Shown one piece after another: positions 4,358 to 20,976 of a DNA stretch of 64,000 nt (positions within the stretch are counted from its first letter, which is position 1; each line of letters begins with the position of its first letter). The stretch is taken from assembly GCA_013287645.1 (NCBI GenBank), contig JABDDJ010000006.1:1441-65440 (forward strand), written 5' to 3'. The DNA comes from Chlamydiota bacterium (GTDB lineage: Bacteria > Chlamydiota > Chlamydiia > Chlamydiales > JABDDJ01). The notes under the pieces are model-generated. The model did no database searches and was not told the DNA's origin. It saw nothing but the letters and a program-made list of their open reading frames with translations. Position numbers and translations under genes: made by a program.

Positions 4358-4363
4358 CCCCTT

Positions 4364-4553
4364 TCATGAGATCTTCCTTTCGTGATTGATTAACCATTTT
4401 TTGCGTGTGAGACCACCACCATAGCCGCCTAGCTCACCATTTGTATTAATGACCCGATGACATGGAATGATAATAGCGAACTGGTTGGCACCATTTGCTA
4501 ATGCTACAGCACGAAAAGCTGAGGGTTTTCCAATTGCTATAGCTATTTCGGCA
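4364..4553 (-). pseudogene. 3'-terminal relic of an ada/ogt-type methyltransferase gene
   Basis: 192 bp (4362-4553) match 18202-18393 with 5 mismatches and no indels. The relic encodes AEIAIAIGKPSAFRAVALANGANQFAIIIPCHRVINTNGELGGYGGGLTRKKWLINHERKIS*. There is no in-frame ATG; an upstream in-frame TAG closes the frame. Confidence 0.8.
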
Positions 4554-4618: not shown

Positions 4619-6439
4619 CTATTGAGTTAAAAGAGATAAATAGTATTTTTCGTATTTTTCTTTAGCGTCAGCTGTCAATGTAATTACTTCTTGAATCGAA
4701 GCCTTGTCTTTATGCTCAGCTTGTCCTGGCTTATGAGCTACTACCATCATTGCTATATCGTTAAAGGTAAAAAAGATGCGAATGCAATGACTTTTTTGTT
4801 GAGACACGATTACATTTTTAAGCACGATTTCGTTTTCGCCATTGGACGGTTCCTTAAAAATTTTTGAGTCCTGTGAATAAGGAAACACACATTCCTCTAT
4901 TAAAAACGTCTTATCGTAGTATTGAAATTGAGCCTGCCAAAAAGCACTGGGCAAATCAATGTAGTGCATGGCTTTTAATTTTTTAAAGTAATGGATGGCG
5001 TTGTCAGGTTTAATGGAAATGATGCGGAGTTGATTTACTTGGTCAAGCACAATTGTAGGTTCGATAGAACTACTTTCTACTAATATGGTACTTATTCCTT
5101 TGATCGAAATAGATTCAGATTCCTTGTCTACAGTAGCAACTAAACGGTCATCGATTTTAATCACATCTGCTGATTGCAACGGAAAAAACTCATTAGTTCC
5201 TGGCAGGCAAAGCAGAGGAATGTTAGCGATAATGGGGTGTGTTATGAACGTCATGATTTCTTGTAGGCGATCGATAGATGCAATAGAGAAGTCAATTGCT
5301 GCAAGGCCTTTAAAAAATTTCTCCCATTGATATACAGGGCTCAAAGGCAGTTGCCAGCAATTTTTTGTCGAATCATAAGTTAAATCAACGGTCGATAAAA
5401 ATTTTTTCTGGTCCGACGGCAGCAAATTAGTCCATTTACAGTAACTTGTACAATCGGTCAACGTATCGCAAGTGATTGCAAAACTGTAAGTCTTTTTTTG
5501 TTCATCATTGAAAAGAAGAGAGATATGATTGCCTCCTGCATAGCAGCTTGAGTAATGAAACAGATTAGTTTTTACCTTAGACTGAAAAAAATCCAGGACC
5601 TCTTTAAATTCTTTTACGTCCAAGTCTGCTATAATAGGCTTACCTATCCACGATATTGTCTGATTGCGATTCGATTCCTTGTATTTTGATCCACCATGAC
5701 CTGCGAGAATGATATTCCATGAGTATGGCATTTCTACATCAGGCAAATCATCATACGTGAGAAAAAAATCAGGCAAAGCGTTCACAATTGTTGCGTGATT
5801 GCATGAATCAAAATAAATAGAAGGAGAGTCTTCAGGATACGGGACTTTTTCAAGAGAATCAGTCTTAAAACCTATTTGCGCATTCTGATCACTATATTTC
5901 TTTGGAATAAATAAATAAAAACCGTTCTTATTACTATAGAGGTCCCAATCTTGAGCATTAAAATCAGTATAATAATTGAGTAAGAGCTGAAAACTTTCAT
6001 CTGTTACATTGTGTTTATCAATGTAAAACTCCTTATTGATAGTGTGAACCACTAATTTTTTATTTTGGCAGACATCATTGCTGAGTGCATTGTAGTGCTT
6101 ACTCCAATATTCAATCTTTTCATTGATCGCGCAGTAAAGATCATACGTTTTATGATGAGGCGAATCTTTTTCTTGCAATTTCTGCTCAAAATTTGTTCGA
6201 CGCTCAATAAAAGAATTCCAAAGACTTATATTTAATAAAATTGGAGTTGTTTGTTCAGCAATTGCTGATTGGAGCCTGGTTATCAAAAACCAACTCTCGG
6301 TACGCCCCACATTTTCCGAATTATCGTGATCAAGAAGAATGATGCAATTGCACTTAAGGTTTTCTGCGGCATTAATGCTAGTTGATAGTATCAATAACAG
6401 CAGCAAAAGCAGAATCTTGATTTTGTTTTTAATGCTCAT
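4619..6439 (-). CDS. secreted hypothetical protein with a caspase-like (clan CD) His/Cys dyad candidate
   Basis: 606 aa. Signal peptide MSIKNKIKILLLLLLLILSTSINA. ILAGHGGS and HYSSCYAGGNH lie 51 residues apart, resembling the His-Gly ... Cys dyad of the caspase/legumain/CHAT fold. The function call is low confidence. Confidence 0.6.
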   Translation of the reverse strand: MSIKNKIKILLLLLLLILSTSINAAENLKCNCIILLDHDNSENVGRTESWFLITRLQSAIAEQTTPILLNISLWNSFIERRTNFEQKLQEKDSPHHKTYDLYCAINEKIEYWSKHYNALSNDVCQNKKLVVHTINKEFYIDKHNVTDESFQLLLNYYTDFNAQDWDLYSNKNGFYLFIPKKYSDQNAQIGFKTDSLEKVPYPEDSPSIYFDSCNHATIVNALPDFFLTYDDLPDVEMPYSWNIILAGHGGSKYKESNRNQTISWIGKPIIADLDVKEFKEVLDFFQSKVKTNLFHYSSCYAGGNHISLLFNDEQKKTYSFAITCDTLTDCTSYCKWTNLLPSDQKKFLSTVDLTYDSTKNCWQLPLSPVYQWEKFFKGLAAIDFSIASIDRLQEIMTFITHPIIANIPLLCLPGTNEFFPLQSADVIKIDDRLVATVDKESESISIKGISTILVESSSIEPTIVLDQVNQLRIISIKPDNAIHYFKKLKAMHYIDLPSAFWQAQFQYYDKTFLIEECVFPYSQDSKIFKEPSNGENEIVLKNVIVSQQKSHCIRIFFTFNDIAMMVVAHKPGQAEHKDKASIQEVITLTADAKEKYEKYYLSLLTQ

Positions 6440-6940: not shown

Positions 6941-9900
6941 TTAACTCATGCGGAATGACTTAGAAGAGGCCAAACTAAGTTGAATCGCCTTAGCTATTGT
7001 AGAAATATGTTGATGTTCAAACATTTCATGATGCGCCATAGGTATTTTGCTAATCGATAGATTTGGTAAAAAATCCCACCCATTATCAGGCATAACACTA
7101 TCCCCTGCTCGAACTAAATGGACCATTCCATCGTAGTAACTAGATTGATGATTCTTTAGAAGTTTATAATTATGTTGCGACTCGGCTTGAAGATCCTCAG
7201 AGTATATAAGAACAGGAAGATCTGTAACGGGTGCGTCAGGAGCATAACTATCTAACATAATGACACGGTCTATTAATTCACCCGTTTCCTTTAAAATTTT
7301 TGCCACCTCTAAAGCCACAATTCCTCCAAAGGACCACCCTCCAATAATGCAAGGAGTTTTAGATTGAATTTTCCTAATTTCTTGAGAGTAATATATCGCC
7401 ATTTCAGATAACGAGGAAAATGAAGTGGTTTTTTGTGTTATAAAAGGATTTTGTATTCCATAAATAGGATGGTCTGGCAAGCACTCTGCTAATGGTCGAT
7501 AACATTCTGCTAAACCTACTGAAGGATGGATCATGAATATCGGAAAGCGATTTCCCGTTGTCTGAATAGGGATAACAGTTTGCCTTTTAGGATTAGCTTG
7601 ATGGGATTCCATGAATTGCGCCAATTCAGAAATAGTTGAATGTTCCTGAAGTTCAGACATTGTTACTTCTATCCCCCATGCTTTTTCAATTTCAATAATT
7701 AGTTGCACGGACTGCAGAGAATCACCTCCCATTTGAAAAAAATCATTAGTTCTATCTTTAGGACATTCTCCAAGTAATTTTTCCCAGATTTCTTGCAACT
7801 TAGTTTCCGTAATGTTCAAACTAATCGAACAGTTTTTATGATCCCTTGTTTTTATTGAATGTAAACTTTTCCGATCTAGCTTTCCATTTGATAATCTCGG
7901 AAGTTTTTCTAGATGAATGTATTGCGTTGGAACCATGTATGAAGGTAACTGTTTTCTAAGAAAGTGCCTTATTATTTTCCAATTATCGACACTTCCCGCA
8001 TAGTAACAGGCAAGCGCTGATCTGTTATTATTGACACTAACATAACCAACAGCCGCTTCAGGAATATTGGGAGCAGACATGATTTTGCTTTCGACCAAAT
8101 GAATATCAACCCGAGATCCATTAACTTTAACAAAATCATTTTTCCTACCAACATACTCAAGCATGCCATCAGGTAAAACCCGAACAAAATCCCCTGTTCT
8201 ATATTGACAATTAGAAAAACTTTCCCCGCGAATATAACCTCTAGCAACTCCAATGCCTTTCAGATGCAATTCTCCAATTCCACCTTCTTGAACAGGATTT
8301 CCTTGATCATCAATAACCGAGCATTCAATCCCGGAAATGGGCCGGCCAATAATTCTTGCCGATTGATTGGTGTTGAATGCATGCAAATGTGTAAATATAG
8401 TGCATTCAGTGGGACCATACCCATTTAAAAGAAGCTTAACCTGTTTGCTCCAATATTCTATGAGACTTTGTGGTGTGGCTTCTCCTCCAATTAGCAGAAA
8501 TTTCAGATGATCTAAAGGAACTTTGGGAAGTAAATTAAGAACACCGGGAGTAAACTGTGCATGAGAAACCTGCATTACATTCATAAAGTTCCATAGACGA
8601 TTTATTCCGCCTTTGTATGGACATAATGTGGCGCCATTTGCAAGAGAAAATGCCCATTCAGATATGTGCATATCAAATGCTGGAGATATATGACTTAGCA
8701 TTTTTGTAGTAGAGGAGATATGGAACATCTGCTTGGCATGTATAGCTCTATGGCTGATTCCTTCATGTTCAATAATGACTCCTTTTGGCCTTCCTGTACT
8801 TCCTGAAGTATAAATTACATATGCGATATCATTAGGTGAAATTCTTACCTCTGGATTTGTACTTGGCAAGCTGTCAAGCTTGTCGAAAGTAATATGATCA
8901 ATGATCAAGAACGGTTTTACGTCTTCAATAATACTTTTACGATGTTCTATAGGGTCTCTGGAATCTAGAGGAATGAAATATCCCCCAGTTTTCAATACTG
9001 CTAGAGTGGCTATTATTTGACTAACAGGATTTTCGAAGCAGACTACAGAGCCCTTTCCGGGACTCATACCTTTTCGAATAAAGTAATGAGCTAGTTGATT
9101 CACTTTCTCGTTGAGAGCCCGATAGGTCAATGATAGGTTTTCATTCTCTATGGCAATCAAGTTGGGATCAATACCTTCTATCATCTCTACTAGGGTTGGT
9201 TGTTCACCTAGCGCGAAGTTTGATTCTGTCTGATTGAGCGAAGAGCCTAGATCCTTAATCAGCAATTCAGGTTGAACCAGTATTTTTTCCAAGATATCCA
9301 TAAATTTATTTGCTAACGTGTTAATACGCCAGCTTTCATAGATGCCTGAAGCATACTGTATGGATATACGGTATCTATTTTCCTCTTCTTCAATGACAAA
9401 ACTTAGATCAAATTCAGTAAAAGGAGAGGGTTTTTCTAAGCGTTGAACTTCAGTGCCGTTTATTTGTGGTGTTTGATCAATGCGACGGTTCCAACTAAAA
9501 ATAACATTCAAATGAATACGTGTTCCCAATGCTTCTTGAATTTGAAAAAATGGAGTCAATCGATGATAAAACATTTCTGCTAATTTTTCTTTGCACACTT
9601 TCAAAAGGTGTGTAAACCTGCTTTCGTTTTGAAATGAAAATTTCATAGGAAGCAGATTAACAAAAAGCCCGAAAGTTTTTTCAGCTTTTCTTGTGGAGAA
9701 AGGAATTCCGATAAGGAATCTATCCTCTTGAGAAAACAACTTATACGAAAGTGAAAACACCGAGAGAAGCAATGCAAAAGGAGTTGTCTCAAATTTTTTG
9801 CTTAAGTCTTGTATTTTTTCTCTTATATGGGGAGAAATAGGGATGCTATAATGCCCCGCATCACGATTTGGAGTTAGAGAGGGGGTGGTTTGCGGGAGTT

Positions 9901-12265
9901 CATTTTTCCAAAACAGAAGAGTATGAAGAGGGATTTCTTTTTGTTGGTTGAAGCTATATTGAGCATAGGAACCCGCTGGAGTGAGTTTTTTTTGAGGATT
10001 CTTGTATAGATCGCTCAACTCTTGCATAAATAAAGCGATAGATTGTTCATCACAAATAATATGATGAAACATGACATCAAGTCTCCACTGTTGAGAAAGT
10101 TCTTGTGTCAATTTATAAAAATACAATTCATTTTTTGTTTGAATAAAATTGTTATGAATTAGAGTAAAAGGTGATTTTAGAGCATCATAACGGTTTTTTA
10201 AAGAGTCAAAGCAACTTTTAAGTCTTTCTATATCGAGATCGCCATGAATACTATAAGAGAGTTCAATATGATATATGGTAGGTTGAGTTGCCACTTGCAT
10301 GCCATACCAAATAGCCAGTTGTTCTCCTGTTGCTGGAATGTCTTTAATATCCTTATTGTTTTCGGGCAAGCTAACAGCGTAGGGGAGTTGTTGAATTAAT
10401 ATGGCCAGATTTTTAGCTGTCGGAGTATCAAAAATATGAATAATATCAACGGATTTATTAGTTGCTTCTTCAAGACGAGAAGCTAAGACAGCTGCATCAA
10501 ATGAATCCCCTCCTAAAGAAGCAAAGAAGTGATCATTTACATCAATATTCTCAATATTTAATACATCAGAGATGCACTTTACAATGGTACTTTCTAGAGT
10601 ATTTAAAGACTTGTCTAATTGAATATCGCCACTGTCTTTTCTAATCCTTTTTTGAAGCTCCTCAGCTGTCTTAAGTGTCGTTGTGAGTTTCACAAAATTT
10701 GATCTATCGACTAATGTTGATTTAGCTGGCTTTATGTCTGATACCAGCGATTCACTAGAAACTGCCTTATCTGGCTCAAAAATGATCTTTATTAACTGTT
10801 TTGACTCAAAGAAATATCCATTTTCATCGGTTGTTAGTGGCTTTAATGATTCCAAAAATATTTTGACGGGTGTATTGCGCTTTGTCTGACAAAAATTTAC
10901 AACAACCAACTTACGGTGTGCTATTTGTCCAATGAAAGACATCATTTGATGCTCAATACCTCTACCTAATACCCGGCAACTTAGTAAAAAAGTATCTAGA
11001 ATTAGGTCATCTTCTCTGTGTTTGATAAAAATGGCCCCAACTAGTCCATAATCACCAAAACGATCCTCTGCATAAATAACGTAAATGGATTGCCTTTGTA
11101 CTTTGAGAAATTCCCGAATTTGTTGGGCTTTTCTACGGCGATTGGAAGCATTAAATTGGTTTGTGCGTTGCGTGAGCTGCGCAACTCGTTCTATTTCATC
11201 GGCATCAATTAATTTTATCTTCGTGTTTAAATGAAGTGAATTAATGAAATCACTTAATGACTTGGAAGAACTCTTTAATTCTTCTCTCTCAAGATGTTTT
11301 TTATACATATTAGTTCTTTGAGCATCTTTTAGAGTCATTTTATGGTAAATCGGTATATCCCAAACATGATGAAAAATAGACGGATCAAACTGTACAACGA
11401 CAACATCTGAAATCGACGCAGAAACAGTAGCGCATTCAATGGGATTATCATCAAAAAATAGCACAGAGTCTGGTCCAATATTCAACTTGTTTATTAAATG
11501 AACTAGATTTTCGCCTTTGCTATTCCAATTAATGTGCCATGCTGTTACAAAATCCTTTTTAAGTATCATGTCCGTATGGTTTTCAAATACTGCAACAACG
11601 TCTTCAAGCTCGTTTTTGCTGAACAATGCAATGGCAATTCCTCTTTGATAAAGATTTACAAGCCACTGTTGAAATTCGCTATGAATGACTATTGGTTCTT
11701 CAGCAACAATACCCTTCCATAAGGTGTTGTCACAATCCACACCGATCAATTTTATCAAAGGGAATTGCATGGAATAAATTATTCTAGCGATCAATGTACC
11801 CAGAACAGCATATCCGGAAAGTGTATAAGGGATATGAGCTGATTTTTCCGTTCTAACATCAAAATAATTAGATACTTGATACTTATCTAACCATTCATGT
11901 AGTTCTATGTAATAAGCGCCAGAGATAGAATCTATCTCTTTTTTGAGATGATCGCCCCACAGGCTTGGAGTTCGTTCTGGACAATGAATAACAAAGATAC
12001 TGGCAGAAATGGTTTTACATATATTACGAAGGTGCTGAACAAAAAAATAAAAATTTTCCTCGTATGAAGAAAATTGCAAATCCTTGTCTCTAATTACGAT
12101 AAAAATGGCGTCATTGTCAGCGCTACTGTTTAAAAGAGTTTGAAATATTTGATTATAAGGGGCAAATTTGATTTCGCATGTCAAAGGTATTTCTTGTACC
12201 CAGAAATCTAAGAATTCACGTAATGGTTCAATGATAAATGAACCTGAGATCAAATATTTACGCAT
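6941..12265 (-). CDS. hybrid nonribosomal peptide synthetase: FkbH-like loading domain - ACP - C - A - PCP - TE
   Basis: 1774 aa. Motifs in order: IGVDCDNTLW (HAD DxDxT, FkbH-type) and LLSCRVLGRGIE; LGGDSF (carrier 1); FHHIICDE (C domain); YTSGSTGRPKGV, FDMHISEW, NGYGPTE, YRTGD and NGKLDRK (A domain); MGGDSLQS (carrier 2); GWSFGG (thioesterase). Confidence 0.9.
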   Translation of the reverse strand: MRKYLISGSFIIEPLREFLDFWVQEIPLTCEIKFAPYNQIFQTLLNSSADNDAIFIVIRDKDLQFSSYEENFYFFVQHLRNICKTISASIFVIHCPERTPSLWGDHLKKEIDSISGAYYIELHEWLDKYQVSNYFDVRTEKSAHIPYTLSGYAVLGTLIARIIYSMQFPLIKLIGVDCDNTLWKGIVAEEPIVIHSEFQQWLVNLYQRGIAIALFSKNELEDVVAVFENHTDMILKKDFVTAWHINWNSKGENLVHLINKLNIGPDSVLFFDDNPIECATVSASISDVVVVQFDPSIFHHVWDIPIYHKMTLKDAQRTNMYKKHLEREELKSSSKSLSDFINSLHLNTKIKLIDADEIERVAQLTQRTNQFNASNRRRKAQQIREFLKVQRQSIYVIYAEDRFGDYGLVGAIFIKHREDDLILDTFLLSCRVLGRGIEHQMMSFIGQIAHRKLVVVNFCQTKRNTPVKIFLESLKPLTTDENGYFFESKQLIKIIFEPDKAVSSESLVSDIKPAKSTLVDRSNFVKLTTTLKTAEELQKRIRKDSGDIQLDKSLNTLESTIVKCISDVLNIENIDVNDHFFASLGGDSFDAAVLASRLEEATNKSVDIIHIFDTPTAKNLAILIQQLPYAVSLPENNKDIKDIPATGEQLAIWYGMQVATQPTIYHIELSYSIHGDLDIERLKSCFDSLKNRYDALKSPFTLIHNNFIQTKNELYFYKLTQELSQQWRLDVMFHHIICDEQSIALFMQELSDLYKNPQKKLTPAGSYAQYSFNQQKEIPLHTLLFWKNELPQTTPSLTPNRDAGHYSIPISPHIREKIQDLSKKFETTPFALLLSVFSLSYKLFSQEDRFLIGIPFSTRKAEKTFGLFVNLLPMKFSFQNESRFTHLLKVCKEKLAEMFYHRLTPFFQIQEALGTRIHLNVIFSWNRRIDQTPQINGTEVQRLEKPSPFTEFDLSFVIEEEENRYRISIQYASGIYESWRINTLANKFMDILEKILVQPELLIKDLGSSLNQTESNFALGEQPTLVEMIEGIDPNLIAIENENLSLTYRALNEKVNQLAHYFIRKGMSPGKGSVVCFENPVSQIIATLAVLKTGGYFIPLDSRDPIEHRKSIIEDVKPFLIIDHITFDKLDSLPSTNPEVRISPNDIAYVIYTSGSTGRPKGVIIEHEGISHRAIHAKQMFHISSTTKMLSHISPAFDMHISEWAFSLANGATLCPYKGGINRLWNFMNVMQVSHAQFTPGVLNLLPKVPLDHLKFLLIGGEATPQSLIEYWSKQVKLLLNGYGPTECTIFTHLHAFNTNQSARIIGRPISGIECSVIDDQGNPVQEGGIGELHLKGIGVARGYIRGESFSNCQYRTGDFVRVLPDGMLEYVGRKNDFVKVNGSRVDIHLVESKIMSAPNIPEAAVGYVSVNNNRSALACYYAGSVDNWKIIRHFLRKQLPSYMVPTQYIHLEKLPRLSNGKLDRKSLHSIKTRDHKNCSISLNITETKLQEIWEKLLGECPKDRTNDFFQMGGDSLQSVQLIIEIEKAWGIEVTMSELQEHSTISELAQFMESHQANPKRQTVIPIQTTGNRFPIFMIHPSVGLAECYRPLAECLPDHPIYGIQNPFITQKTTSFSSLSEMAIYYSQEIRKIQSKTPCIIGGWSFGGIVALEVAKILKETGELIDRVIMLDSYAPDAPVTDLPVLIYSEDLQAESQHNYKLLKNHQSSYYDGMVHLVRAGDSVMPDNGWDFLPNLSISKIPMAHHEMFEHQHISTIAKAIQLSLASSKSFRMS

Positions 12266-12368: not shown

Positions 12369-12401
12369 AAAAACACAAAAGGCAATCTCATCGAGATTGC
12401 C
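12369..12401 (-). terminator. intrinsic terminator downstream of the truncated tRNA-Pro copy
   Basis: Hairpin ggcaatctc-atc-gagattgcc at 12381-12401. On the minus strand it is followed by TTTTGTGTTTTT. Confidence 0.5.
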
Positions 12402-12424
12402 TGTAAGTCCTTGAGAGAAAAGAA

Positions 12425-12472
12425 TCTGGGTGAGAGGATTTGAACCTCCGACCCCTTGCACCCCATGCAAGT
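12425..12472 (-). repeat. attR-like direct repeat: 48-nt copy of the 3' part of tRNA-Pro
   Basis: Identical to 21034-21081, covering the discriminator base, acceptor 3' strand, T arm, variable loop and the whole anticodon stem-loop. The tRNA 5' part is absent. Confidence 0.85.
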
Positions 12473-12610
12473 TTTTTCATGTTTTTAACCATATCATCCT
12501 GTCTCATTCAATGCTATCAAAATCGCATTCATGATGCTATTTCAGATTGATTTTTATCATATCTTTGTCTTATTTTGTAACTTTAAATATTGGCACTTAT
12601 TAGGTGGTCT

Positions 12611-12632
12611 CATCCGCCACATATCCGCCACA
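12611..12632 (+). repeat. candidate integrase arm-type site (tandem ATCCGCCACA x2)
   Basis: catccgccacatatccgccaca, identical to 20949-20970. It lies ~140 bp inside the element from attR, upstream of dinD-int. A degenerate single copy (tcatccaccacc) is at 12351-12362. Confidence 0.5.
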
Positions 12633-12676
12633 TGAAAATAAGGAAAAATCACTTCCATACTACAGGAGATTAAACA

Positions 12677-13567
12677 ATGAATAAAGATTTAGTTGAGAAC
12701 ACTCATCATCAAACTTTCGAATCACTTAGACAAGAAGAAGATGAGTGTGAATTTTGGAGTGCACGTAAATTAGCAAAGGTATTGGAATACAATGACTACC
12801 GTAATTTTCTTAATGTCATAGAAAAAGCTAAAGAAGCTTGCAAAAATAGCGGACACAATATTGTCGATCATTTCGTTGATGTCACCGATATGATCGACAT
12901 TGGCAAGGGAGGGCTGCGACAAGCTGCTGACGTAAGATTGTCTCGTTATGCCTGCTATCTGGTCGTACAAAATGGTGATCCAGCGAAGCCTGTTATTGCC
13001 AACGGACAGACTTATTTTGCAATTCAAACCCGCCGACAAGAGCTAGCCGATAACCGAAATTTTCAACAGCTAAAGGAAGAAGAGAAACGTGTTTATCTTC
13101 GAAAAGATCTTCGAGAACACAATAAACAGTTAGTCGAAACAGCTCAGCAATCTGGTGTAGAAACAACCCTTGATTTTGCCATATTCCAAAACCATGGTTA
13201 TAAGGGTCTCTATGGAGGTCTCGATGCAAAGGATATCCATGTACGCAAGGGACTGAAAAAGAATCAGAAGATTTTAGATCATATGGGAAGTACCGAACTT
13301 GCTGCGAATCTTTTTAGAGCCACTCAAGCGGAAGATAAGCTTCGTCGAGAGAACATCAAAGGGAAAAACAAAGCAAATCAAACTCACTATGAGGTAGGAA
13401 CGATAGTACGTCAAACTATTGAGAGGTTAGGAGGTACTATGCCCGAAGACTTGCCTGTTGCAGAAAAGAGTATCAGACAACTGGAAAAAGAAAGGAATCA
13501 AAAATCCATAGAAGTCGGCACGAATTCCTATGACATCCAAAACATTAGCTTGGATCAAGAAAATTAA
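12677..13567 (+). CDS. dinD: DNA-damage-inducible protein D (DinD family)
   Basis: 296 aa. Long blocks that I recognise from E. coli DinD: LSRYACYLVVQNGDPAKPVIANGQTYFAIQTRRQELAD, FAIFQNHGYKGLYGGLD and KKNQKILDHMGSTELAANLFRATQ. Confidence 0.85.
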   Translation: MNKDLVENTHHQTFESLRQEEDECEFWSARKLAKVLEYNDYRNFLNVIEKAKEACKNSGHNIVDHFVDVTDMIDIGKGGLRQAADVRLSRYACYLVVQNGDPAKPVIANGQTYFAIQTRRQELADNRNFQQLKEEEKRVYLRKDLREHNKQLVETAQQSGVETTLDFAIFQNHGYKGLYGGLDAKDIHVRKGLKKNQKILDHMGSTELAANLFRATQAEDKLRRENIKGKNKANQTHYEVGTIVRQTIERLGGTMPEDLPVAEKSIRQLEKERNQKSIEVGTNSYDIQNISLDQEN

Positions 13568-13585
13568 ATTACTTAATGGAAGTCG

Positions 13586-14881
13586 ATGGAAAAAATTCCC
13601 CGCTCAACTGCTGATGAGTTTTGTCAAAAGCTCAAGCCACAGGAAAAACCTATTTACATTCGAGACTCTCAAGTTAAAGGCTTAGTCCTTCGTGTCATGC
13701 CGACAGGCTCTAAATCTTGGATCTTTTGCTATTCCGTAAAAGAGGGAGACAAATGGCGAGAGCGAAGAAACGGTCTTGGTCCTTTTAGGCAAGGACGCAA
13801 TGATGCTGGCGGCTTGACTGTTTCTGCTGCACGACGTTTAGCTGAACGGATCAAAAATGAAGTGAAGCATGAAGGTGCTGACCCTATTGAAGAAAGAAAA
13901 AAGAGAGCTGTCAACAGAGCAAATGAGAAAGCTCTTACAGTTCTTGTGAAGGATCTTTTTGAACGTTGGGCAATCACCGATTTAATTAATCGCAAAGATA
14001 AAGGCACAGAAGCCCGTCGCATGATGGAAAAGGATGTTCTGCCATTCATTGGTGAATTAGATATAAGAGATGTGCGTAAGCTTCATGTGGCAGAGATAAC
14101 AGATCGTCTACTCCAACGAAATGTTAAGCGCATGGCAAAGGTTGTCTTTAGCCTTATTCGTCAGATGTTTAGATTTGCCGTTACGCGCGATCTTTTGGAA
14201 TCAGATCCCACCGCTATGGTCAGCAAGAAAAATATTGGAGGAGCCAACATTGAACGCGAGCGAGTATTGAGTGAAGAGGAAATTGGAGAGTTAGCTAGAA
14301 AGTTACCTCTCTCTCAAATGACAGAAATGAACGGACTAGCTATCTGGATTACCCTGGCTACTGGCTGTCGCATCGGCGAGTTATTAAAAGCTCGTTGGTA
14401 TCATATTTCTTTTGAACGTAACACTTGGATAATTCCTGCAGAGAACAGCAAAAATCAGAGAGAACACATTGTTCATCTATCACCTTTTGCTCTTCGCCAT
14501 TTTTTGAAATTGCATGAGCTCTCAGGAGAGGGAGAATGGTGTTATCCCAGTCGAGTTAATGGACATATCTGTCCGAAAACAATCACAAAACAAATAACAG
14601 ATCGCCAAAGGACTGTTGCGAATTTAAAAAATCGAAGCAAAAATACAAATGCTCTTACCTTGTCCAAAGGGGTATGGAAACCCCATGATCTGCGAAGAAC
14701 TGCTGCAACTTTGATGAATGCCCTGGGTGTATTACCTGAAGTTGCAGAGCGCTGCTTAAATCATCTTGAAGAAAACAGATTAAAACGCATCTATCAGCGA
14801 TATGGCTATGAAGTTGAAATGAAACAAGCCTGGGAAGCTTTAGGACATCACTTAGATCAGCTAATAACAAAGGGTCAATAG
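13586..14881 (+). CDS. int: tyrosine recombinase / phage P4-type integrase
   Basis: 431 aa. N-terminal arm-binding (DUF4102-like) segment IRDSQVKGLVLRVMPTGSKSWIF. Catalytic-domain residues appear in ATGCRIGELL, HDLRRTAAT and LNH...Y. Confidence 0.92.
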   Translation: MEKIPRSTADEFCQKLKPQEKPIYIRDSQVKGLVLRVMPTGSKSWIFCYSVKEGDKWRERRNGLGPFRQGRNDAGGLTVSAARRLAERIKNEVKHEGADPIEERKKRAVNRANEKALTVLVKDLFERWAITDLINRKDKGTEARRMMEKDVLPFIGELDIRDVRKLHVAEITDRLLQRNVKRMAKVVFSLIRQMFRFAVTRDLLESDPTAMVSKKNIGGANIERERVLSEEEIGELARKLPLSQMTEMNGLAIWITLATGCRIGELLKARWYHISFERNTWIIPAENSKNQREHIVHLSPFALRHFLKLHELSGEGEWCYPSRVNGHICPKTITKQITDRQRTVANLKNRSKNTNALTLSKGVWKPHDLRRTAATLMNALGVLPEVAERCLNHLEENRLKRIYQRYGYEVEMKQAWEALGHHLDQLITKGQ

Positions 14882-14883
14882 AT

Positions 14884-15483
14884 ATGACACAATCTTTCAA
14901 AGCATTGACAATCCCCGATCATTTGGAATTTATAGAAAAACATCCTATTGGAAAAGGGGTTCATGAGTTAACAGGATTAAGCATTGATAAAATTTTAGGT
15001 GAATGCACGTTAGAAATACCTGAAGAGTATTCTCCTGGCGTAGGTTGGCTTGTAAGCTGGCCTTATGAAAAACTGAATATTCATTCTTCCCATATTCATG
15101 CCATTCAGATTCTTCTCAAGCTCATGTGGCTCTATTCATGCAAGGAGTCGACTGATAGCCCTTTAAAAACATTTGTGTCTCAAGAATTAGCCATGTTTGA
15201 AGCTGGCATGAAACTAGAGGCAAGTCGACGCCAAAGAATTGAGGCAGCTAAAAAAGAACGTCCATGGCCTGCTCTTGCTAAATGGATTAAGAGAAAATTC
15301 AAAACTAAAGCTGGATGGATAAACAAGGAATTGTGGAACGCTTTACCTGATAGTTACGAAGATGAGGCTGTTTATCGTGATGGAGATAAATTATGCTGTT
15401 CAAAAGGCTCTCATGCCTCAATAGGTTTTCGCGCATTCTGTGACCATGTTCGAAAGCATCGCGAAAAAAATAAATGCAGATAG
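14884..15483 (+). CDS. hypothetical island protein
   Basis: 199-aa ORF starting 3 nt after int. No motif recognised. Confidence 0.5.
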   Translation: MTQSFKALTIPDHLEFIEKHPIGKGVHELTGLSIDKILGECTLEIPEEYSPGVGWLVSWPYEKLNIHSSHIHAIQILLKLMWLYSCKESTDSPLKTFVSQELAMFEAGMKLEASRRQRIEAAKKERPWPALAKWIKRKFKTKAGWINKELWNALPDSYEDEAVYRDGDKLCCSKGSHASIGFRAFCDHVRKHREKNKCR

Positions 15484-15544
15484 CGGCGTTAGCTGCATCT
15501 GCATATGAGATAATAAATCACATAGTAACATTAAACGAGGCTAT

Positions 15545-15736
15545 GTGATGAAAAATTTAACACCTTTTTTGCGAGATACAGAAGTTGCTAATCGATATTC
15601 CGTTAGTCGACCAACCATATGGCGGTGGGTAAAAGAGGGTCGATTTCCAAAACCAATAAAATTAGGAATTGGTTCGACGCGCTGGCGCTATTCCGATCTG
15701 GAAGCATGGGAGCAATCCCAGATTCAAGAGGGCTAG
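15545..15736 (+). CDS. alpA: AlpA-family helix-turn-helix regulator/excisionase
   Basis: 63 aa. YSVSRPTIWRWVKEGRFPKPIKLGIGSTRWRYSDLEAWE matches the AlpA/prophage CP4-57 regulatory pattern. Confidence 0.8.
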   Translation: MMKNLTPFLRDTEVANRYSVSRPTIWRWVKEGRFPKPIKLGIGSTRWRYSDLEAWEQSQIQEG

Positions 15737-15789
15737 CATGAAACAACAACTTTTTGCATTAGCCTATTTTCCCGATAAGAGGGAAAATT

Positions 15790-16692
15790 ATGCATAAAAT
15801 TCCTTATGTTTTCCGAGCAATTCCAGATGAATTTTTGACAGAAGATTTTTTAAGCGATCCTATTATGATACGCTTGATCGCTTGGATGATGAAACGCATT
15901 TATACTTATCCTCATAAGATTGCCTTGAAAAGATCCGCTAAACATCTGCTTCTTGAGCCTTTCGAATTCATATATGGAAGAGATAAATGCGCAAAGGATG
16001 CAAATATTTCTCCAAATAATGCACGAACAAGACTAAAACAGCTTATGGGCCTTGGTTATATAGAAGAAGTTGTTGCCAAAAGCACCAGCACTTTTTCAGT
16101 TTATAGACTAGTGACAACAGCTTTCAAGCAAAATTTTAGCCAGCAACCCAACCAGCATTCTGACCAACAGGAAGATCAGCTAGTCCACCACAAACGAAAA
16201 ACAGAGATTAAAAAAGATAAAAATATAAAAGAGGCGCTTAATGTTTCTTCAAAACACGCCGATAAATCGCCCCTTTCTGATAATCAGAAAGAAAAACTTT
16301 ATGCCTTGCTAGCTTACTCTGAAAACAAGAAATTAAAAATTTATGAGCCATCTTTAACTAGATGGTTGAAAATTTATGAAATTGATCGCATTACGGGGAA
16401 TTTACATCTATTAGAAGAGCAAATGCACAAAGTGATTAACCATGAAGCATGGCTAGAAACGGCATTAAAAGAAAATTATGCCTCGCAGAAAAACAACATC
16501 CAAAAGAATCGAGAGTTTGCAAAACAATTTAAGGAAAAGAATCAATGGGTTGACTTGCATCTTACTGAAAATTATTGTACCCATCTTCCTTCAGATAAAG
16601 ATTATCAATATTTTCTCATTCCTACAAGTTTTCAAAAGATGCTTAAAGACTGTTTTGATCAATATAATGAGATTGATAATTTAGGAGGATAG
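15790..16692 (+). CDS. hypothetical island protein (possibly replication/DNA-binding)
   Basis: 300-aa ORF in the position usually occupied by replication genes in P4-like islands. The N-terminal half looks winged-helix-like, but there is no firm motif. Confidence 0.5.
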   Translation: MHKIPYVFRAIPDEFLTEDFLSDPIMIRLIAWMMKRIYTYPHKIALKRSAKHLLLEPFEFIYGRDKCAKDANISPNNARTRLKQLMGLGYIEEVVAKSTSTFSVYRLVTTAFKQNFSQQPNQHSDQQEDQLVHHKRKTEIKKDKNIKEALNVSSKHADKSPLSDNQKEKLYALLAYSENKKLKIYEPSLTRWLKIYEIDRITGNLHLLEEQMHKVINHEAWLETALKENYASQKNNIQKNREFAKQFKEKNQWVDLHLTENYCTHLPSDKDYQYFLIPTSFQKMLKDCFDQYNEIDNLGG

Positions 16693-17133
16693 ATGTCTGA
16701 AAATGCAGAAGAAATGCAGGTAACAGGGAAATTTCAGAAAGGAAGATCGGGTAACCCTAAAGGAAAAGCCAAAGGTACAAAAAATAGGGCAACTATATTT
16801 GCAGAAACATTGTTAAAAGATGAAGTAGAAAGCATCTGCCGACGTCTAATACAGGAGGCTTTAACTGGCAATATTCAAGCTATCAAAATGGTTCTTGATC
16901 GGATATTTCCTTCTAGGAGAGATTGTCCCATTACAATTGAACTTCCTAAAATTCAAAACTCTTCCCACGTCTTGCAGGCAATAGGTTCGATTACGGCAGC
17001 AGTAGGAAATGGGGAGATTTCTCCAAGTGAAGGAGAGGCTTTATCGAGAATTATCGATGTCCATGTGAAAGCAATTGAAGCTCATGATTGCGAAAAACGG
17101 CTCAGTAAACTTGAAGAGAGGAAAATTCAATGA
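16693..17133 (+). CDS. DUF5681-like island protein
   Basis: 146 aa with a basic N-terminal motif KGRSGNPKGKAKGTKN, typical of DUF5681 proteins in mobile elements. Confidence 0.55.
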   Translation: MSENAEEMQVTGKFQKGRSGNPKGKAKGTKNRATIFAETLLKDEVESICRRLIQEALTGNIQAIKMVLDRIFPSRRDCPITIELPKIQNSSHVLQAIGSITAAVGNGEISPSEGEALSRIIDVHVKAIEAHDCEKRLSKLEERKIQ

Positions 17134-17351
17134 AATCATCAATCAAAAAGCGATTAAAAATTTTAGAGAATAGCTTAAACATAGATCAGAAGCATAAATG
17201 TGCATTAGTAGTATGCGATCCTGAGATTCTGCATACATTTGATTTTTCATTTATTGAAGCTGAACATATGGTAATTTTGCCTGATAATGGCCGAAGATTA
17301 CCAGGAGATCAGACAATTGGAAAAGGTTCTTATTCTATTCATTATTCATAA
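17130..17351 (+). CDS. hypothetical small protein
   Basis: 73-aa ORF overlapping the upstream stop by 4 nt. Confidence 0.4.
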   Translation: MKSSIKKRLKILENSLNIDQKHKCALVVCDPEILHTFDFSFIEAEHMVILPDNGRRLPGDQTIGKGSYSIHYS

Positions 17352-17427
17352 ATATCTGACCTGTTGCGAAAAGAATTCCAAACCAACTGCTATTTTTGCA
17401 TAGCAGTTAGACTGTAAGATTTTTTCT

Positions 17428-18237
17428 CTAGTTTTGGCCTACGGAAATTGCCTTGCGCCCAGCTTCTTTCAAAGATTCCATTACAAGACAATAAGGATTT
17501 GGACCATAGCTAATCCGAGCGACTCCCAATCCCACAAGCTGTTTAACTGAAGGCATATCAGGAAGAATCATTGTATTGATTGGTATAGGAGAACATTTAC
17601 ATAATTGTTCAATGTAATTGACATTTCTTAGACCTGGAACAAAAAATCCATTTGCTCCAGATTCTGCATAGGCATGAACACGCCGTATAGCTTCTTCTAA
17701 GTGGCTTTCTTTAGGGTTCTCAGAAGCTGTTTTGAAAAAAACATCGGTTCGTGCATTGATGAAAATAGGAATTGAAGCACGCTCTGCAACTTGACGAATT
17801 GCTTTAATACGCTTGCATTGATCTTCAATCGAATATAAATTATCAGTACCGATGATCTGATCTTCGAAATTTATTCCAACGGCCCCCGCTTCAATGACTT
17901 TTTTAACAGTTTCTTTTACTTCAGATGGGGTTGTTCCATAGCCACCTTCTATATCAATTGTTACAGGAAGATCGACTTTTGCAACAATGCGTTTAAGATT
18001 TGCGAGCACCAAATCAATAGATAGCTTTTCACCGTCTTCATATCCATGTGCCGCTGCTACAGACCAGCTCCCTGTGGCTATTGCTTTGGCTCCGATTTCT
18101 TGCATAGCCTGTGCGCTCCCCGCATCCCAAATATTAAATAAGATAAGCGGATTACCTTTGATGTGAAGATTTTTTAATAAGTGAGCATGTTCTATTTGAT
18201 TTTTCATGAGATCTTCCTTTCGTGATTGATTAACCAT
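17428..18237 (-). CDS. isocitrate lyase / PEP mutase superfamily protein (short, 2-methylisocitrate-lyase-like)
   Basis: 269 aa with NIWDAGSA, DIEGGYG and INFEDQ blocks of the ICL/PEPM TIM-barrel family. Its start overlaps the ada stop by 34 nt. Confidence 0.8.
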   Translation of the reverse strand: MVNQSRKEDLMKNQIEHAHLLKNLHIKGNPLILFNIWDAGSAQAMQEIGAKAIATGSWSVAAAHGYEDGEKLSIDLVLANLKRIVAKVDLPVTIDIEGGYGTTPSEVKETVKKVIEAGAVGINFEDQIIGTDNLYSIEDQCKRIKAIRQVAERASIPIFINARTDVFFKTASENPKESHLEEAIRRVHAYAESGANGFFVPGLRNVNYIEQLCKCSPIPINTMILPDMPSVKQLVGLGVARISYGPNPYCLVMESLKEAGRKAISVGQN

Positions 18238-19250
18238 TTTTTGCGTGTGAGACCACCCCCATAACCGCCTAGCTCACCATTTGTATTAATGACCCGATGA
18301 CATGGAATGATAATAGCGAACTGGTTGGCGCCATTTGCTAATGCTACAGCACGAAAAGCTGATGGTTTTCCAATTGCTATAGCTACTTCGGCATAAGACC
18401 GCGTTTCACCAGGCGGAATTTTTAATAATTCTTCCCAAACATGCTTTTGAAAAGGTGATCCTATAAGATGTAACGGTGTTTTGAATGATCTTAGCTTCCC
18501 CTTGAAGTAAAGGTAAAGTTCTTGCTCAATTGAATCTATAGGTTCTGAGCGACCTGGAATGATCGCTGATTTTGTTTTTTGTCTAAGACGTTCGATTTCA
18601 CGTTCTAAACCGCGGCGATCGACAAACTCTAACAAGTAAATAGCTTCTTCATTGGCTATTGCAACCATCGGACCAAGTGGAGTATCCAGCCAGGAAGCTT
18701 TTAAGATATTCTGATTTCCCAACTTTGTTGGAGCGGCTCCCATAATTCGCGAAAAAGCATCTCTAAAACCACTACTGGATTCATATCCAGTCGAGAGTTG
18801 TGCTTCAATGACAGCTTCTCCTCCTCTGATTTGTTTCATGGCTAGCCCCATACGACGTGCTCTTACATACTCTACGAATGTCATGCCAAACCGTTTATTG
18901 AATTGACGGCGAGCTGTTGAAGCATCCACGGCTAATTCCTCAAAATCTTTATCTTTCCAACGCCTTTCAGGGTCTTTTTCAACTGCTTCTACTAGTATTT
19001 GAATGAGCTTTGAAACGTGGCTTGGGTGAGATAGTGGTTTACAACGTTTACATGGACGAAATGACGCTAATAAGGCCTGTTGAGCGGTTTCAAAGAATTC
19101 ACAGTTTTCAAACTTTGGCTTTCTTGCAGGACAGGTCGGACGACAAAATACTCCTGTAGTTTTCACTCCAACAAAAAATAGACCTTCATACTCTGTTTTT
19201 TTTGCTAAGAGTGCTTGATAGTATTCTTTTTTATTTTCATTACTGATCAT
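18204..19250 (-). CDS. ada: bifunctional Ada-type regulator / O6-methylguanine-DNA methyltransferase
   Basis: 348 aa. N-terminal Ada zinc/Cys cluster GVFCRPTCPARKPKFENCEFF, an AraC-type HTH, and a C-terminal MGMT active site IIPCHRVI. Confidence 0.88.
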   Translation of the reverse strand: MISNENKKEYYQALLAKKTEYEGLFFVGVKTTGVFCRPTCPARKPKFENCEFFETAQQALLASFRPCKRCKPLSHPSHVSKLIQILVEAVEKDPERRWKDKDFEELAVDASTARRQFNKRFGMTFVEYVRARRMGLAMKQIRGGEAVIEAQLSTGYESSSGFRDAFSRIMGAAPTKLGNQNILKASWLDTPLGPMVAIANEEAIYLLEFVDRRGLEREIERLRQKTKSAIIPGRSEPIDSIEQELYLYFKGKLRSFKTPLHLIGSPFQKHVWEELLKIPPGETRSYAEVAIAIGKPSAFRAVALANGANQFAIIIPCHRVINTNGELGGYGGGLTRKKWLINHERKIS

Positions 19251-19984: not shown

Positions 19985-20173
19985 TTTGAGACTCCTAAAT
20001 TGGTCTGTTCCTCCTCATTATAGTGAACGCTAAAATAAGCCGACGCCGAAATTCAGGCGTTAATTTTTTTATTATATCAATATAAAGGCTAATGGGTTGC
20101 AACTGAAGACTAGATCCGTTTGATTTCATGTAATTTGCCTGATAATGGCTGTGGATTTCCTTTGGACCTTCAT

Positions 20174-20899: not shown

Positions 20900-20948
20900 T
20901 CAGTACTTCTCCTATCTTTATGGTTTATTGACCTTATTTTCGAGGAGC

Positions 20949-20970: not shown

Positions 20971-20976
20971 CGAACC

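Follow-up and report, generated by a model that had tools for sequence, protein, structure and literature searches.

A putative stand-alone nonribosomal peptide synthetase with an FkbH-like glyceryl-loading unit in an environmental chlamydia

Could an obligate intracellular chlamydia carry a complete assembly line for a small natural product? In the 64-kb stretch of DNA analysed here (the window), we found one gene whose product is probably best explained as a functional, stand-alone, single-module nonribosomal peptide synthetase (NRPS) with glyceric acid as its starter. The open reading frame runs uninterrupted from ATG to stop and encodes 1774 amino acids, and the N-terminus of the product lines up with the starts of nine homologues. 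The gene and its domains are as follows.

6941..12265 (-), FkbH-ACP-C-A-PCP-TE synthetase gene (ORF list and translation, Pfam, NCBIfam)
11759..12265 (-), NEX subdomain, residues 1-169 (conserved in the clade; alpha/beta fold modelled with high confidence)
11366..11758 (-), HAD-type (MDP-1-like) phosphatase, residues 170-300 (TIGR01686, 3slr, invariant motifs)
10766..11263 (-), GNAT-like acyltransferase subdomain, residues 335-500 (invariant columns, Foldseek)
10382..10609 (-), carrier protein 1 (ACP/T1), residues ~553-628 (Pfam PP-binding, PDB PCP matches)
9236..10348 (-), condensation domain, residues ~640-1010 (Pfam Condensation)
7856..9178 (-), adenylation domain, residues ~1030-1470 (Pfam AMP-binding, TIGR01733)
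7613..7801 (-), carrier protein 2 (PCP), residues 1489-1551 (Pfam PP-binding)
6944..7543 (-), type I thioesterase, residues 1575-1774 (Pfam Thioesterase, invariant triad)

The protein consists of six domains only, in the order FkbH (NEX, HAD phosphatase and GNAT-like acyltransferase), ACP, C, A, PCP and a terminal TE, and all the NRPS domains score far beyond the Pfam thresholds. Pfam and NCBIfam agree with the domain order proposed in an earlier, sequence-only reading of this DNA, and every motif quoted there is present in its place. The label "hybrid" used in that reading is a misnomer, since no KS, AT, KR or DH match was obtained in the protein with Pfam at E <= 0.01, nor any dehydratase, ketoreductase, dehydrogenase or methyltransferase domain. 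Consequently, we dropped the PKS-NRPS hybrid; the synthetase is an NRPS with an FkbH loading unit. The catalytic residues of all six domains are intact and invariant over ten clade members with 41-63% identity, including the DxDxT Asp, the carrier Ser and the TE Ser on which the earlier reading depended, which argues for purifying selection. The gene had also appeared AT-rich by eye. Against a window value of 0.411, its GC content is indeed 0.363; lower values still occur in 7 of the remaining 43 ORFs, and at three homologous loci the GC content of the gene equals that of the flanks, so that the AT-richness is mild and the gene is no outlier.

The N-terminal unit (residues 1-500) holds up as a predicted FkbH-like glyceryl transferase/phosphatase (TIGR01686; HAD subfamily IIIC), as had been assigned from the letters. 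The NCBIfam model TIGR01686 ("FkbH domain") matches residues 170-473 over profile positions 2-316 of 323 with 254.4 bits, above the curated cut-off of 146.65 bits. Within the phosphatase subdomain, VDCDNTLW starts at residue 176 and provides the HAD motif D177-x-D179-x-T181, followed by S216-K217-N218 and by D272-D273 (FFDDNP at 270), while the acyltransferase subdomain contains RTNQFN (367-372), DRFGxYGLxG (401-410) and LLSC430R (LLSCRV at 427) as invariant stretches. DxDxT, SKN, DD and LLSC430R are invariant in all 16 aligned sequences, even in the distant cyanobacterial and gammaproteobacterial relatives with 34-37% identity. Since DxDxT, SKN and DD are intact and invariant, dephosphorylation would be expected, and the conserved Cys of the acyltransferase subdomain is presumably the covalent glyceryl carrier, as reported for OzmB. 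The structural comparisons point to the same folds. PDB 3slr matches the phosphatase part in phmmer (E 2.3e-19); in the AF2 model of residues 1-545 (pLDDT 87, pTM 0.76) the NEX and HAD part superposes on 3slr over 351 columns (Foldseek, E 4e-17), and the further Foldseek matches include the MDP-1 HAD phosphatases 1u7p and 2wm8 as well as the GNAT acetyltransferases 3eo4, 9mto, 4cry and 5xxr. The layout of NEX, phosphatase and acyltransferase is the same as that of the FkbH-like proteins described previously (PMC12304814).

Two stretches of the synthetase match Pfam PP-binding (E 6.3e-28), and the PDB PCP matches cover residues 554-627, that is, carrier 1. The phosphopantetheine sites are S588 in carrier 1 (LGGDSF; GGDSF at 585), invariant in the clade, and S1516 in carrier 2 (MGGDSL; GGDSL at 1513), also invariant. 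The best stretch of the Pfam Condensation match is 711-1007 (E 1.6e-40), and the active-site motif HHIICDE lies at 734-740, with H734, H735, D739 and E740 invariant in the clade. The motif thus reads HHxxxDE, not HHxxxDG, with Glu in place of the usual Gly, and the variant HHxxxD[E/A] is common to other single-module FkbH NRPSs.

For the adenylation domain, AMP-binding matches 1034-1344 (E 7.8e-60), TIGR01733 reaches 282.6 bits, under its own cut-off of 317.4, and AMP-binding_C reaches 22.8 bits, slightly under the Pfam cut-off of 24.5. Motifs A3, A4, A5, A7, A8 and A10 were located, with YTSGSTGRPKG at 1152, FDMHISEW at 1197, NGYGPTE at 1281, YRTGD at 1355, GRKNDFVKVNGSRV at 1373 and NGKLDRK at 1460. 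Extraction of the specificity code by alignment to GrsA, a check suggested earlier, was performed with MAFFT against GrsA 234-452 (the GrsA sequence being 100% identical to PDB 1amu_A), and gave D M S Q L G G I F K at positions 235, 236, 239, 278, 299, 301, 322, 330, 331 and 517 in GrsA numbering. D1198 aligns with GrsA D235, and K1462 in NGKLDRK corresponds to K517; the presence of both points to an alpha-amino acid as the probable substrate, as had been proposed from the Asp. The code DMSQLGGIFK has no confident substrate match, so that the amino acid is not predictable from it. It shares 6 of 10 positions with the Gly code DILQLGLIWK and 5 of 10 with the Val code DAFWIGGTFK. The pocket-filling residues L239, L322 and W331 of Gly domains are S, G and F here, and a confident call was dropped. 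Among the clade members, the code differs at positions 239, 278, 299 and 301.

The Pfam Thioesterase match spans 1575-1677 (E 3.1e-20), and the triad S1645 (GGWSFGG at 1642; GWSFG), D1672 and H1745 is invariant in ten sequences. The distance of 27 residues from Ser to Asp presumably agrees with the thioesterases of SrfA-C and EntF, while the distance from Ser to His, only 100 residues, is presumably shorter than in either of them. Because of this short distance, and because the match covers only the first half of the Pfam profile (positions 2-106 of 226), the lid region would be unusual.

The choice of substrates, the way in which groups are passed along and the release step are inferred here by analogy with FkbH/OzmB-type enzymes and canonical NRPS modules. 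The FkbH unit would accept 1,3-bisphosphoglycerate from glycolysis, the 3-phosphate would be removed at the DxDxT site, and the glyceryl group would be held on C430 before its transfer to carrier 1, where S588 bears the phosphopantetheine arm. The A domain would adenylate one alpha-amino acid and load it onto S1516 of carrier 2; the amino group of this amino acid could then attack the glyceryl-S-ACP at the C domain (H735) to give N-(2,3-dihydroxypropanoyl)-aminoacyl-S-PCP. The acyl chain would finally move to the TE (S1645/D1672/H1745), and release by hydrolysis would yield a linear N-glyceroyl amino acid; alternatively, attack by a glycerate hydroxyl could yield a 6- or 7-membered lactone. 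A glyceryl-amino-acid product, already put forward in the sequence-only reading, is what the arrangement of the domains, their unimpaired catalytic residues and the FkbH-like N-terminal unit would lead one to expect.

The order FkbH-T-C-A-T is already known from glycerate-starter NRPSs, such as dysinosin DysB. The suomilide synthetase, whose FkbH domain is reportedly implicated in a glyceric acid moiety joined to the first amino acid, and the FkbH-sulfotransferase NRPSs of Planktothrix and Nostoc (e.g., P0064) share this order with DysB and with the protein described here. In DysB, the sulfated glyceric acid moiety together with the first amino acid has been attributed to these domains (PMC6520454). 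The FkbH catalytic motifs of these cyanobacterial systems are identical to those of the synthetase. However, they are first modules of multi-module lines, accompanied by a sulfotransferase, methyltransferase or epimerase and by more NRPS genes, whereas the module here stands alone and ends straight in a TE; compared with pathways of the dysinosin, suomilide and vioprolide types, no further NRPS modules or tailoring domains were found in the protein or its neighbourhood, where the gene neighbours are a 606-aa ORF and mobile-element genes. The identity to the cyanobacterial systems is only 33% (FkbH), 21% (C) and 33% (A), and their C3 motif is HHxxxDG.

The same domains occur elsewhere in other arrangements. 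Stand-alone FkbH-type enzymes divert 1,3-bisphosphoglycerate to glyceryl-S-ACP, and FkbH of FK520, OzmB of oxazolomycin and the tetronate pathway enzymes all fall under TIGR01686. These enzymes are separate proteins with separate ACPs as partners, and they supply PKS extender units or tetronate pathways, whereas our synthetase carries the unit as part of an NRPS module, with the glyceryl moiety predicted to become an N-acyl cap. The C-A-PCP-TE half matches the structures of EntF, SrfA-C, AB3403 and LgrA; for EntF (E 2e-63) and SrfA-C (E 5e-80) the match extends over the C-terminal 1130 residues, with the same domain order and TE triad. These two proteins receive the donor from an aryl or peptidyl carrier on another polypeptide, whereas here the donor carrier and the enzyme that loads it belong to the same chain, in cis. 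In the cystomanamide and vioprolide lines, FkbH domains of NRPS modules load 1,3-bisphosphoglycerate onto a T domain and dephosphorylate it (PMC8949500). In these lines, as in C-FkbH of foxicin FoxBII, FkbH replaces the A domain of an NRPS or hybrid line (PMC8949500; PMC5318452) and stands after the C domain; the vioprolide glycerate is esterified with a fatty acid through the action of a C domain. In our synthetase FkbH precedes the C domain; therefore, glycerate would be the donor and an amide would be expected.

The most similar architecture is found in uncharacterised metagenomic proteins of ~1940-2050 aa (P0012, P0021, P0043 and P0048/P0050), which have the same six-domain order terminated by a TE, share the HHxxxD[E/A] variant and align over 94-99% of the synthetase. 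They differ from it in their hosts, in their flanking MFS transporters and methyltransferase, and in being 160-270 residues longer with only 23-36% identity per domain, and for one member of this cluster, MGD0465608.1, the annotation names a Gammaproteobacteria MAG as the source. Their A domain, one per protein, has a different code in each of them. The code of P0043 is DAFWIGGTF, the Val code, and that of the further single-module homologues P0059/P0072 is DVWHISLVD, which is Ser-like; such textbook-like codes would fit a family of "glyceroyl-X" synthetases.

Among 5.8 billion proteins, only nine close homologues were found (41-63% identity), which form one clade, so the family is rare. The members of the clade that were checked are chlamydial, and one of them lies on a confirmed chlamydial contig. 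A neighbor-joining (NJ) tree of the FkbH core of 119 proteins also recovers the clade as monophyletic, with all outgroups about equidistant (~0.55), and a statement on the donor lineage was dropped for this reason. Relatives outside the clade do not exceed ~39% identity in any domain; consequently, no outside donor is visible and, the checked members being chlamydial, nothing points to a recent arrival from a different phylum. A scan of GTDB-representative genomes (a collection that excludes the window's own genome and the clade) with the synthetase protein gave only relatives of 23-27% identity in Anaerolineales and Poribacteria. In a scan of metagenome contigs with the clade alignment, the FkbH-NRPS loci numbered at least 566. 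Their identity was 25-34% throughout, and no further clade member was among them. In P0008, the internal A domain is missing and a different, Gly-like A domain is present at the C-terminus. No PPTase, transporter or tailoring gene is conserved beside the homologues, and neither a tRNA nor an integrase is found there, so the association with tRNA-Pro is specific to this genome.

The ThrRS encoded in the window is 71-77% identical to proteins of Parachlamydiales and Parachlamydiaceae MAGs, and on the contig of the closest synthetase homologue PutA is nearest to those of Chlamydiae, Ca. Protochlamydia and Waddlia; by these similarities, the host is placed in the Parachlamydiales, as an environmental chlamydia. 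The literature search returned no paper linking FkbH to chlamydiae in a relevant way. The earlier remark that NRPS genes are rare in Chlamydiae is right for this family but not for biosynthetic gene clusters (BGCs) in general, which, NRPS-like ones included, have been reported to be common across environmental chlamydiae and to be missing from Chlamydiaceae and Parilichlamydiaceae alone (PMC9666466).

The gene lies between relics that duplicate parts of a neighbouring integrative element, as listed below.

4362..4553 (-), ada relic, last ~63 codons (direct repeat D1; bounds the far side of the NRPS block)
4619..6439 (-), 606-aa ORF (ORF list; inside the relic-bounded NRPS block, immediately downstream of the synthetase gene)
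12369..12472 (-), relic attachment site: tRNA-Pro 3' 49 nt, terminator and arm-like site (repeat D2)
12473..21109 (no strand), integrative element with tRNA-Pro target (Pfam, ARAGORN, Rfam, repeats D2 and D3, alignment)
12588-12636 and 20926-20974, arm-type repeats of the element
12677-13567, Bro-N protein (Pfam)
13586-14881, tyrosine integrase (Pfam Arm-DNA-bind_3, Phage_int_M, Phage_integrase)
16693-17133, DUF5681 protein (Pfam); the element also holds hypothetical ORFs
17428-18237 (-), PEP-mutase-family gene (Pfam)
18204-19250 (-), ada, intact (Pfam)
19247-19984 (-), methyltransferase-like ORF
20174-20899 (-), 241-aa ORF
21033-21109 (-), tRNA-Pro(ggg) (ARAGORN, Rfam)

The ada fragment and the truncated tRNA noticed earlier near 4.4 and 12.4 kb are both real and tell more than had been recognised. 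The former (4362-4553, 192 nt) repeats the 3' end of the intact ada (18202-18393) with 97% identity and sharp boundaries. The latter belongs to a segment (12369-12472) that is a 93% direct-repeat copy of 20978-21081 and includes the terminator as well as 49 nt from the 3' part of tRNA-Pro(ggg). These 49 nt occur twice, at 12424-12472 and at 21033-21081; in the alignment, the identity stops abruptly at 12472/21081, inside the tRNA. The relic, ~100 nt upstream of the start codon of the synthetase, holds a terminator hairpin (12402-12380) and one ATCC(A/G)CCAC arm-like site, and the terminator stems of the two copies differ by a compensatory change. The 606-aa ORF has a hydrophobic, signal-like N-terminus and no Pfam match, and neither it nor the island genes have a homologue in the homologous loci L003-L007. 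The element carries a tyrosine integrase as well as direct repeats of the 3' part of the tRNA, which are the marks of a tRNA-targeting integrative element. Since both relics duplicate ends of this element, local mobility is well supported, and what they speak for is that DNA has moved or been rearranged locally, on an integrase-bearing element at tRNA-Pro. Of the horizontal acquisition suggested in the sequence-only reading, the local movement is thus retained, but not a recent import from another phylum. As for expression, the 114 nt that separate the relic terminator from the start codon gave no call for a sigma-70-like promoter; over its full extent the scan yielded fewer sites (24) than shuffles (31.8), so it permits no statement on the promoter.

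Several other explanations have to be weighed against the glycerate-starting NRPS proposed above. With the same assembly chemistry, the TE could be a cyclase or oligomerase, giving a hydroxymethyl-morpholine-2,5-dione, a 1,4-oxazepane-2,5-dione or, by enterobactin-like iterative logic, a di- or trimeric glyceroyl-amino-acid macrolactone in place of the free acid. Two free glycerate hydroxyls near the thioester, the half-length Pfam match, the short Ser-to-His spacing with its atypical lid region and the presence of EntF, a single C-A-PCP-TE module that oligomerises, among the structural relatives all speak for it. However, no sequence feature separates hydrolysing from cyclising TEs, and the literature searches gave no precedent for such products from FkbH NRPSs; we regard this as an unlikely alternative. 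It is less probable still that the FkbH unit supplies something other than plain glycerate, such as a retained 3-phosphoglyceryl unit, a lactyl or pyruvyl unit after further processing, or another phosphorylated acid, in which case the product would be no glyceroyl conjugate. The N-terminal 545 residues are only 30-39% identical to any homologue outside the clade, and FkbH-like domains do feed end products as varied as methoxymalonyl-ACP, tetronates and the D-lactate of bryostatin, but the phosphatase motifs are intact and invariant, and no dehydratase, ketoreductase, dehydrogenase or methyltransferase occurs in the protein or is conserved beside the homologues.

About equally improbable is a decaying or silent passenger of the mobile element that is intact by chance and never phosphopantetheinylated or expressed. 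The recombination scars on its flanks, the terminator ~115 nt upstream of the start codon and the drift of specificity-code positions inside the clade would be consistent with such a passenger, as would the motif regex searches, a weak test, that gave neither Sfp/AcpS PPTase signatures in the six-frame translations of the 64-kb window nor an MbtH-like motif in it. Yet a 5.3-kb ORF without stop or frameshift is unlikely to last without selection, the catalytic residues of six domains show no variation among ten homologues, even at an identity as low as 41%, and the A-domain swap in P0008 would make little sense had function been lost. That the gene is not chlamydial at all, and is present through chimeric assembly or wrong binning, is hardly credible. 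The scan of GTDB species representatives gave no close relative, but the same 64-kb stretch carries chlamydial ThrRS and RecBCD, the GC content of the gene is inside the range of the other genes, the closest homologue shares its contig with a chlamydial PutA, and a third homologue sits among BTB and RING proteins, which are typical of amoeba-associated chlamydiae.

We also considered, as a doubtful proposal, that the NRPS is cargo of a 13.8-kb element moving among amoeba-associated chlamydiae, with a chlamydia-specific product acting on the host or on competing intracellular bacteria. Read in this way, the order would be ada 3' end, 606-aa secreted protein, NRPS, attP, Bro-N, integrase and so on up to the PEP-mutase-like gene. 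If this were true, a glyceroyl-amino-acid or its lactone might account, for example, for the unexplained protection of amoebae against Legionella by Parachlamydiaceae (PMC9666466).

The glycerate-starting NRPS bears on a wider question. Obligate intracellular chlamydiae were long believed to have no secondary metabolism, and a 2022 survey that described BGCs in environmental chlamydial lineages characterised none of them. The synthetase is about the smallest complete assembly line possible, with one protein and two building blocks, one of them direct from glycolysis, and this small size could offer an unusually tractable path to a first chlamydial natural product. The clade, with the swapped Gly-like A domain of P0008 and its drifting specificity-code positions, is a natural experiment, and the interleaved repeats around the gene make it a testable case for gene movement in chlamydial genomes.

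The synthetase is encoded by a single, uninterrupted ORF (6941..12265, minus strand; 1774 aa), as seen in both the ORF list and the translation. In Pfam, its Condensation, AMP-binding, PP-binding (two stretches) and Thioesterase domains were detected with E between 1e-20 and 1e-60, and the NCBIfam model for the FkbH domain, TIGR01686, scored 254 bits on residues 170-473 (curated cut-off 146.65). Six catalytic units occur in the order loader, carrier, C, A, carrier and TE; their active sites are intact and are kept in homologues down to 41% identity. The ORF and domain order described in the sequence-only reading are fully confirmed by the ORF, Pfam, NCBIfam and motif positions, and every motif string quoted there was located in place. 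The 'hybrid' label, however, has to be dropped: neither a KS nor an AT domain is present, therefore the protein is not a PKS-NRPS hybrid. Judged from its sequence, it is a real, intact single module with an FkbH glycerate loader, and it is probably functional.

For the loader, an alignment was made of the first 545 residues, the nine close homologues and six more distant FkbH-NRPS fusions (34-37% identity), whose sources include cyanobacteria and a gammaproteobacterial MAG. D177/D179/T181 (DxDxT), S216-K217-N218, D272-D273, RTNQFN (367-372), DRFGxYGLxG (401-410) and LLSC430R are all invariant. AlphaFold2, run on this alignment, gave a high-confidence model (mean pLDDT 87, pTM 0.76). Foldseek against the PDB matched it to 3slr (Bacteroides BF1531, N-terminal part plus phosphatase domain; E 4e-17, 351 columns) and to MDP-1-type HAD phosphatases, while its C-terminal third resembles GNAT acetyltransferases. 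[quoted passage not shown] Since the profile search succeeded and the catalytic residues are unmutated on alignment, the FkbH assignment stands.

The C-domain motif reads H734-H735-IIC-D739-E740, with Glu in place of Gly in the usual HHxxxDG. This variant is invariant across the clade formed by the synthetase and its nine close homologues, and other single-module FkbH NRPSs likewise have HHxxxD[E/A], whereas the multi-module cyanobacterial relatives have DG. In the A domain, motifs A3-A10 are present. The specificity code, extracted by MAFFT alignment to GrsA 234-452 (reference 100% identical to PDB 1amu_A), is D M S Q L G G I F, plus K1462; D235 and K517 in GrsA numbering indicate an alpha-amino acid as the predicted substrate. 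Comparison with published codes gave no confident substrate match, six of the ten positions agreeing with the Gly code and five with that for Val. The code also varies inside the clade (DMFILAGIF, DMAIMGGIF, DMAIMAGIF, DMLTCGGIF and DMALMAGIF). The TE residues S1645, D1672 and H1745 are all invariant in the clade alignment; the match to the Pfam TE profile covers no more than its first half, so the lid is atypical. The entire C-A-PCP-TE half matches the structures of LgrA, AB3403, SrfA-C and EntF.

By analogy with established FkbH/OzmB and NRPS chemistry, the most likely mechanism would yield a glyceroyl-amino acid. 1,3-Bisphosphoglycerate would be dephosphorylated and then transferred via C430 to S588 of the first carrier (ACP), the amino acid would be loaded onto S1516 of the second (PCP), the C domain would form N-glyceroyl-aminoacyl-S-PCP, and the TE would release an acid or a lactone. 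Both architecture and chemistry are already of a known kind. For example, dysinosins have been proposed to gain their glyceric acid moiety by the same FkbH-T-C-A-T logic (PMC6520454), and FkbH modules are also on record for the synthesis of cystomanamide and vioprolide (PMC8949500).

Searching 5.8 billion proteins brought up the nine close full-length homologues (41-63% identical, 1604-1785 aa). Together with the synthetase, they group as a single clade in an NJ tree built on the FkbH core, with every outgroup at an equal distance. Per-domain BLAST against FkbH-NRPS fusions outside the clade gave identities of 30-39% for the N-terminal/FkbH region, 19-27% for the C domain and 27-35% for the A domain. 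One clade member, P0008 (locus L004, 10001-15247), has the permuted order FkbH-ACP-C-PCP-TE-A: it is without the internal A domain, and the one after the TE is different (33% identity, Gly-like code DILQIGAIW). P0008 is preceded by 11 consecutive ORFs on the same strand, of which one has a Tae4 amidase-effector domain, and is followed by BTB and RING-finger proteins; a further BTB protein lies at the upstream edge of the locus.

FkbH-NRPS fusions are generally common: a single metagenome scan gave at least 566 loci. Other metagenomes contain uncharacterised single-module proteins of the same architecture at only 23-36% identity. For one member of a cluster, the annotation gives a Gammaproteobacteria MAG as the source, and its neighbours are MFS transporters and a methyltransferase. 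The A-domain codes of these proteins differ mutually (Val-like, Ser-like and others with no assigned substrate), which suggests that single-module FkbH NRPSs may constitute a broader family of glyceroyl-X synthetases. The stand-alone module with TE is uncharacterised, yet not unique to the chlamydial lineage, whose clade is small and divergent. Among the distant relatives outside the clade, per-domain BLAST placed FkbH after the C domain near the C-terminus in many, such as P0011, P0013 and P0015 (A-T-C-FkbH-T-TE). This orientation resembles that of foxicin and vioprolide, where glycerate would act as acceptor instead of starter. Metagenomes thus commonly hold both of these opposite uses of FkbH in NRPSs.

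The surroundings of the gene were considered for signs of transfer. The AT-richness noted by eye is mild, with a GC of 0.363 against a window mean of 0.411. Seven of the remaining 43 ORFs have a lower GC and, at three homologous loci, the NRPS gene has the same GC as its flanks; therefore, composition is no evidence for transfer. Both flanking relics of mobile DNA proposed in the sequence-only reading are real, being repeats of the ada 3' end and of the 3' part of a tRNA-Pro. The features concerned are as follows.

4362-4553: second copy of the ada-end repeat, 97% identity, sharp edges
12369-12472: tRNA-Pro relic, comprising the 3' 49 nt, the terminator hairpin and one ATCC(A/G)CCAC site
12473-21081: integrative element at tRNA-Pro, 8.6 kb, with an intact tyrosine integrase and candidate arm sites
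18202-18393: ada-end repeat, the last 192 nt of ada
21033-21109: tRNA-Pro(ggg), intact copy

Between the tRNA-Pro copies lie a 241-aa ORF and, as identified by Pfam, genes for a tyrosine integrase that has an arm-binding domain, for a Bro-N protein and for a DUF5681 protein. The cargo comprises a PEP-mutase-family gene, a full Ada (Zn-binding, HTH and MGMT domains) and a methyltransferase-like ORF. The PEP_mutase-family protein (17428-18237, minus strand; 269 aa) matches PF13714 with E 6.6e-80; PF13714 PepM has been discussed as a marker of phosphonate BGCs in sponge chlamydiae (PMC9666466). The protein on the element may be either a genuine PepM or an enzyme of the methylisocitrate-lyase type. 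Tandem ATCCGCCACA repeats at 12609-12630 and 20948-20969 flank the two att copies, placed as arm sites would be, and are candidates for these. When the relic is aligned with the intact tRNA, identity stops abruptly inside the tRNA. A compensatory pair, GGCAATCTC/GAGATTGCC versus GGCATTCTC/GAGAATGCC, distinguishes the terminator hairpins (12380-12402 and 20989-21011), which suggests an origin in two diverged tRNA-Pro loci and not in a recent duplication.

The order is ada-end, 606-aa ORF and NRPS, tRNA-end, integrase and following genes, ada-end, rest of ada, methyltransferase and ORF, and tRNA-end. Two histories fit. The 8.6-kb element may have integrated at tRNA-Pro beside a resident NRPS, the ada relic being an older event; or the NRPS and the 606-aa ORF may have been carried, along with the integrase and an intact attP, on a 13.8-kb circle that recombined through the ada end, which would make the NRPS cargo. 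At the homologue loci, no tRNA or integrase adjoining the NRPS was found. Under either history, the gene occupies a recombination hot spot. About 115 nt separate its start codon from an upstream terminator; no convincing promoter was called, and no PPTase or MbtH-like motif was seen within the 64-kb window.

Elsewhere in the window, a 1526-aa ORF (47659-52239, minus strand) has a GC of 0.556 in a 0.41-GC genome, yet a GC3 of only 0.236, and its strong multi-stretch matches are to collagen-like adhesins, at 607 bits for SclB and 592 bits for Legionella Lcl. Between 48 and 52 kb, GC rises to 0.58, an island accounted for by the gene of this giant Gly-X-Y repeat protein. The adjoining 707-aa ORF (52188-54311, minus strand) has two weak matches far below cut-off, to SunS-family peptide S-glycosyltransferases at its N-terminus (E 6.6e-10) and to MamA (E 1.7e-06).

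As for the host, the ThrRS in the window is 71-77% identical to Parachlamydiales and Parachlamydiaceae MAG proteins, and RecBCD is also encoded. The contig of the closest NRPS homologue carries a PutA nearest those of Chlamydiae, Ca. Protochlamydia and Waddlia, and a further homologue has BTB and RING proteins around it. Therefore, from its gene surroundings, the clade looks chlamydial. The expected rarity of NRPS genes in Chlamydiae has to be revised: in an antiSMASH survey, BGCs, NRPS-like ones among them, were widespread in environmental chlamydiae and absent from Chlamydiaceae (PMC9666466). That survey is without any mention of FkbH, and a literature search for FkbH in chlamydiae found no relevant link among the papers covered. 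The main value of the synthetase is that it offers a one-gene route to a first chlamydial natural product.
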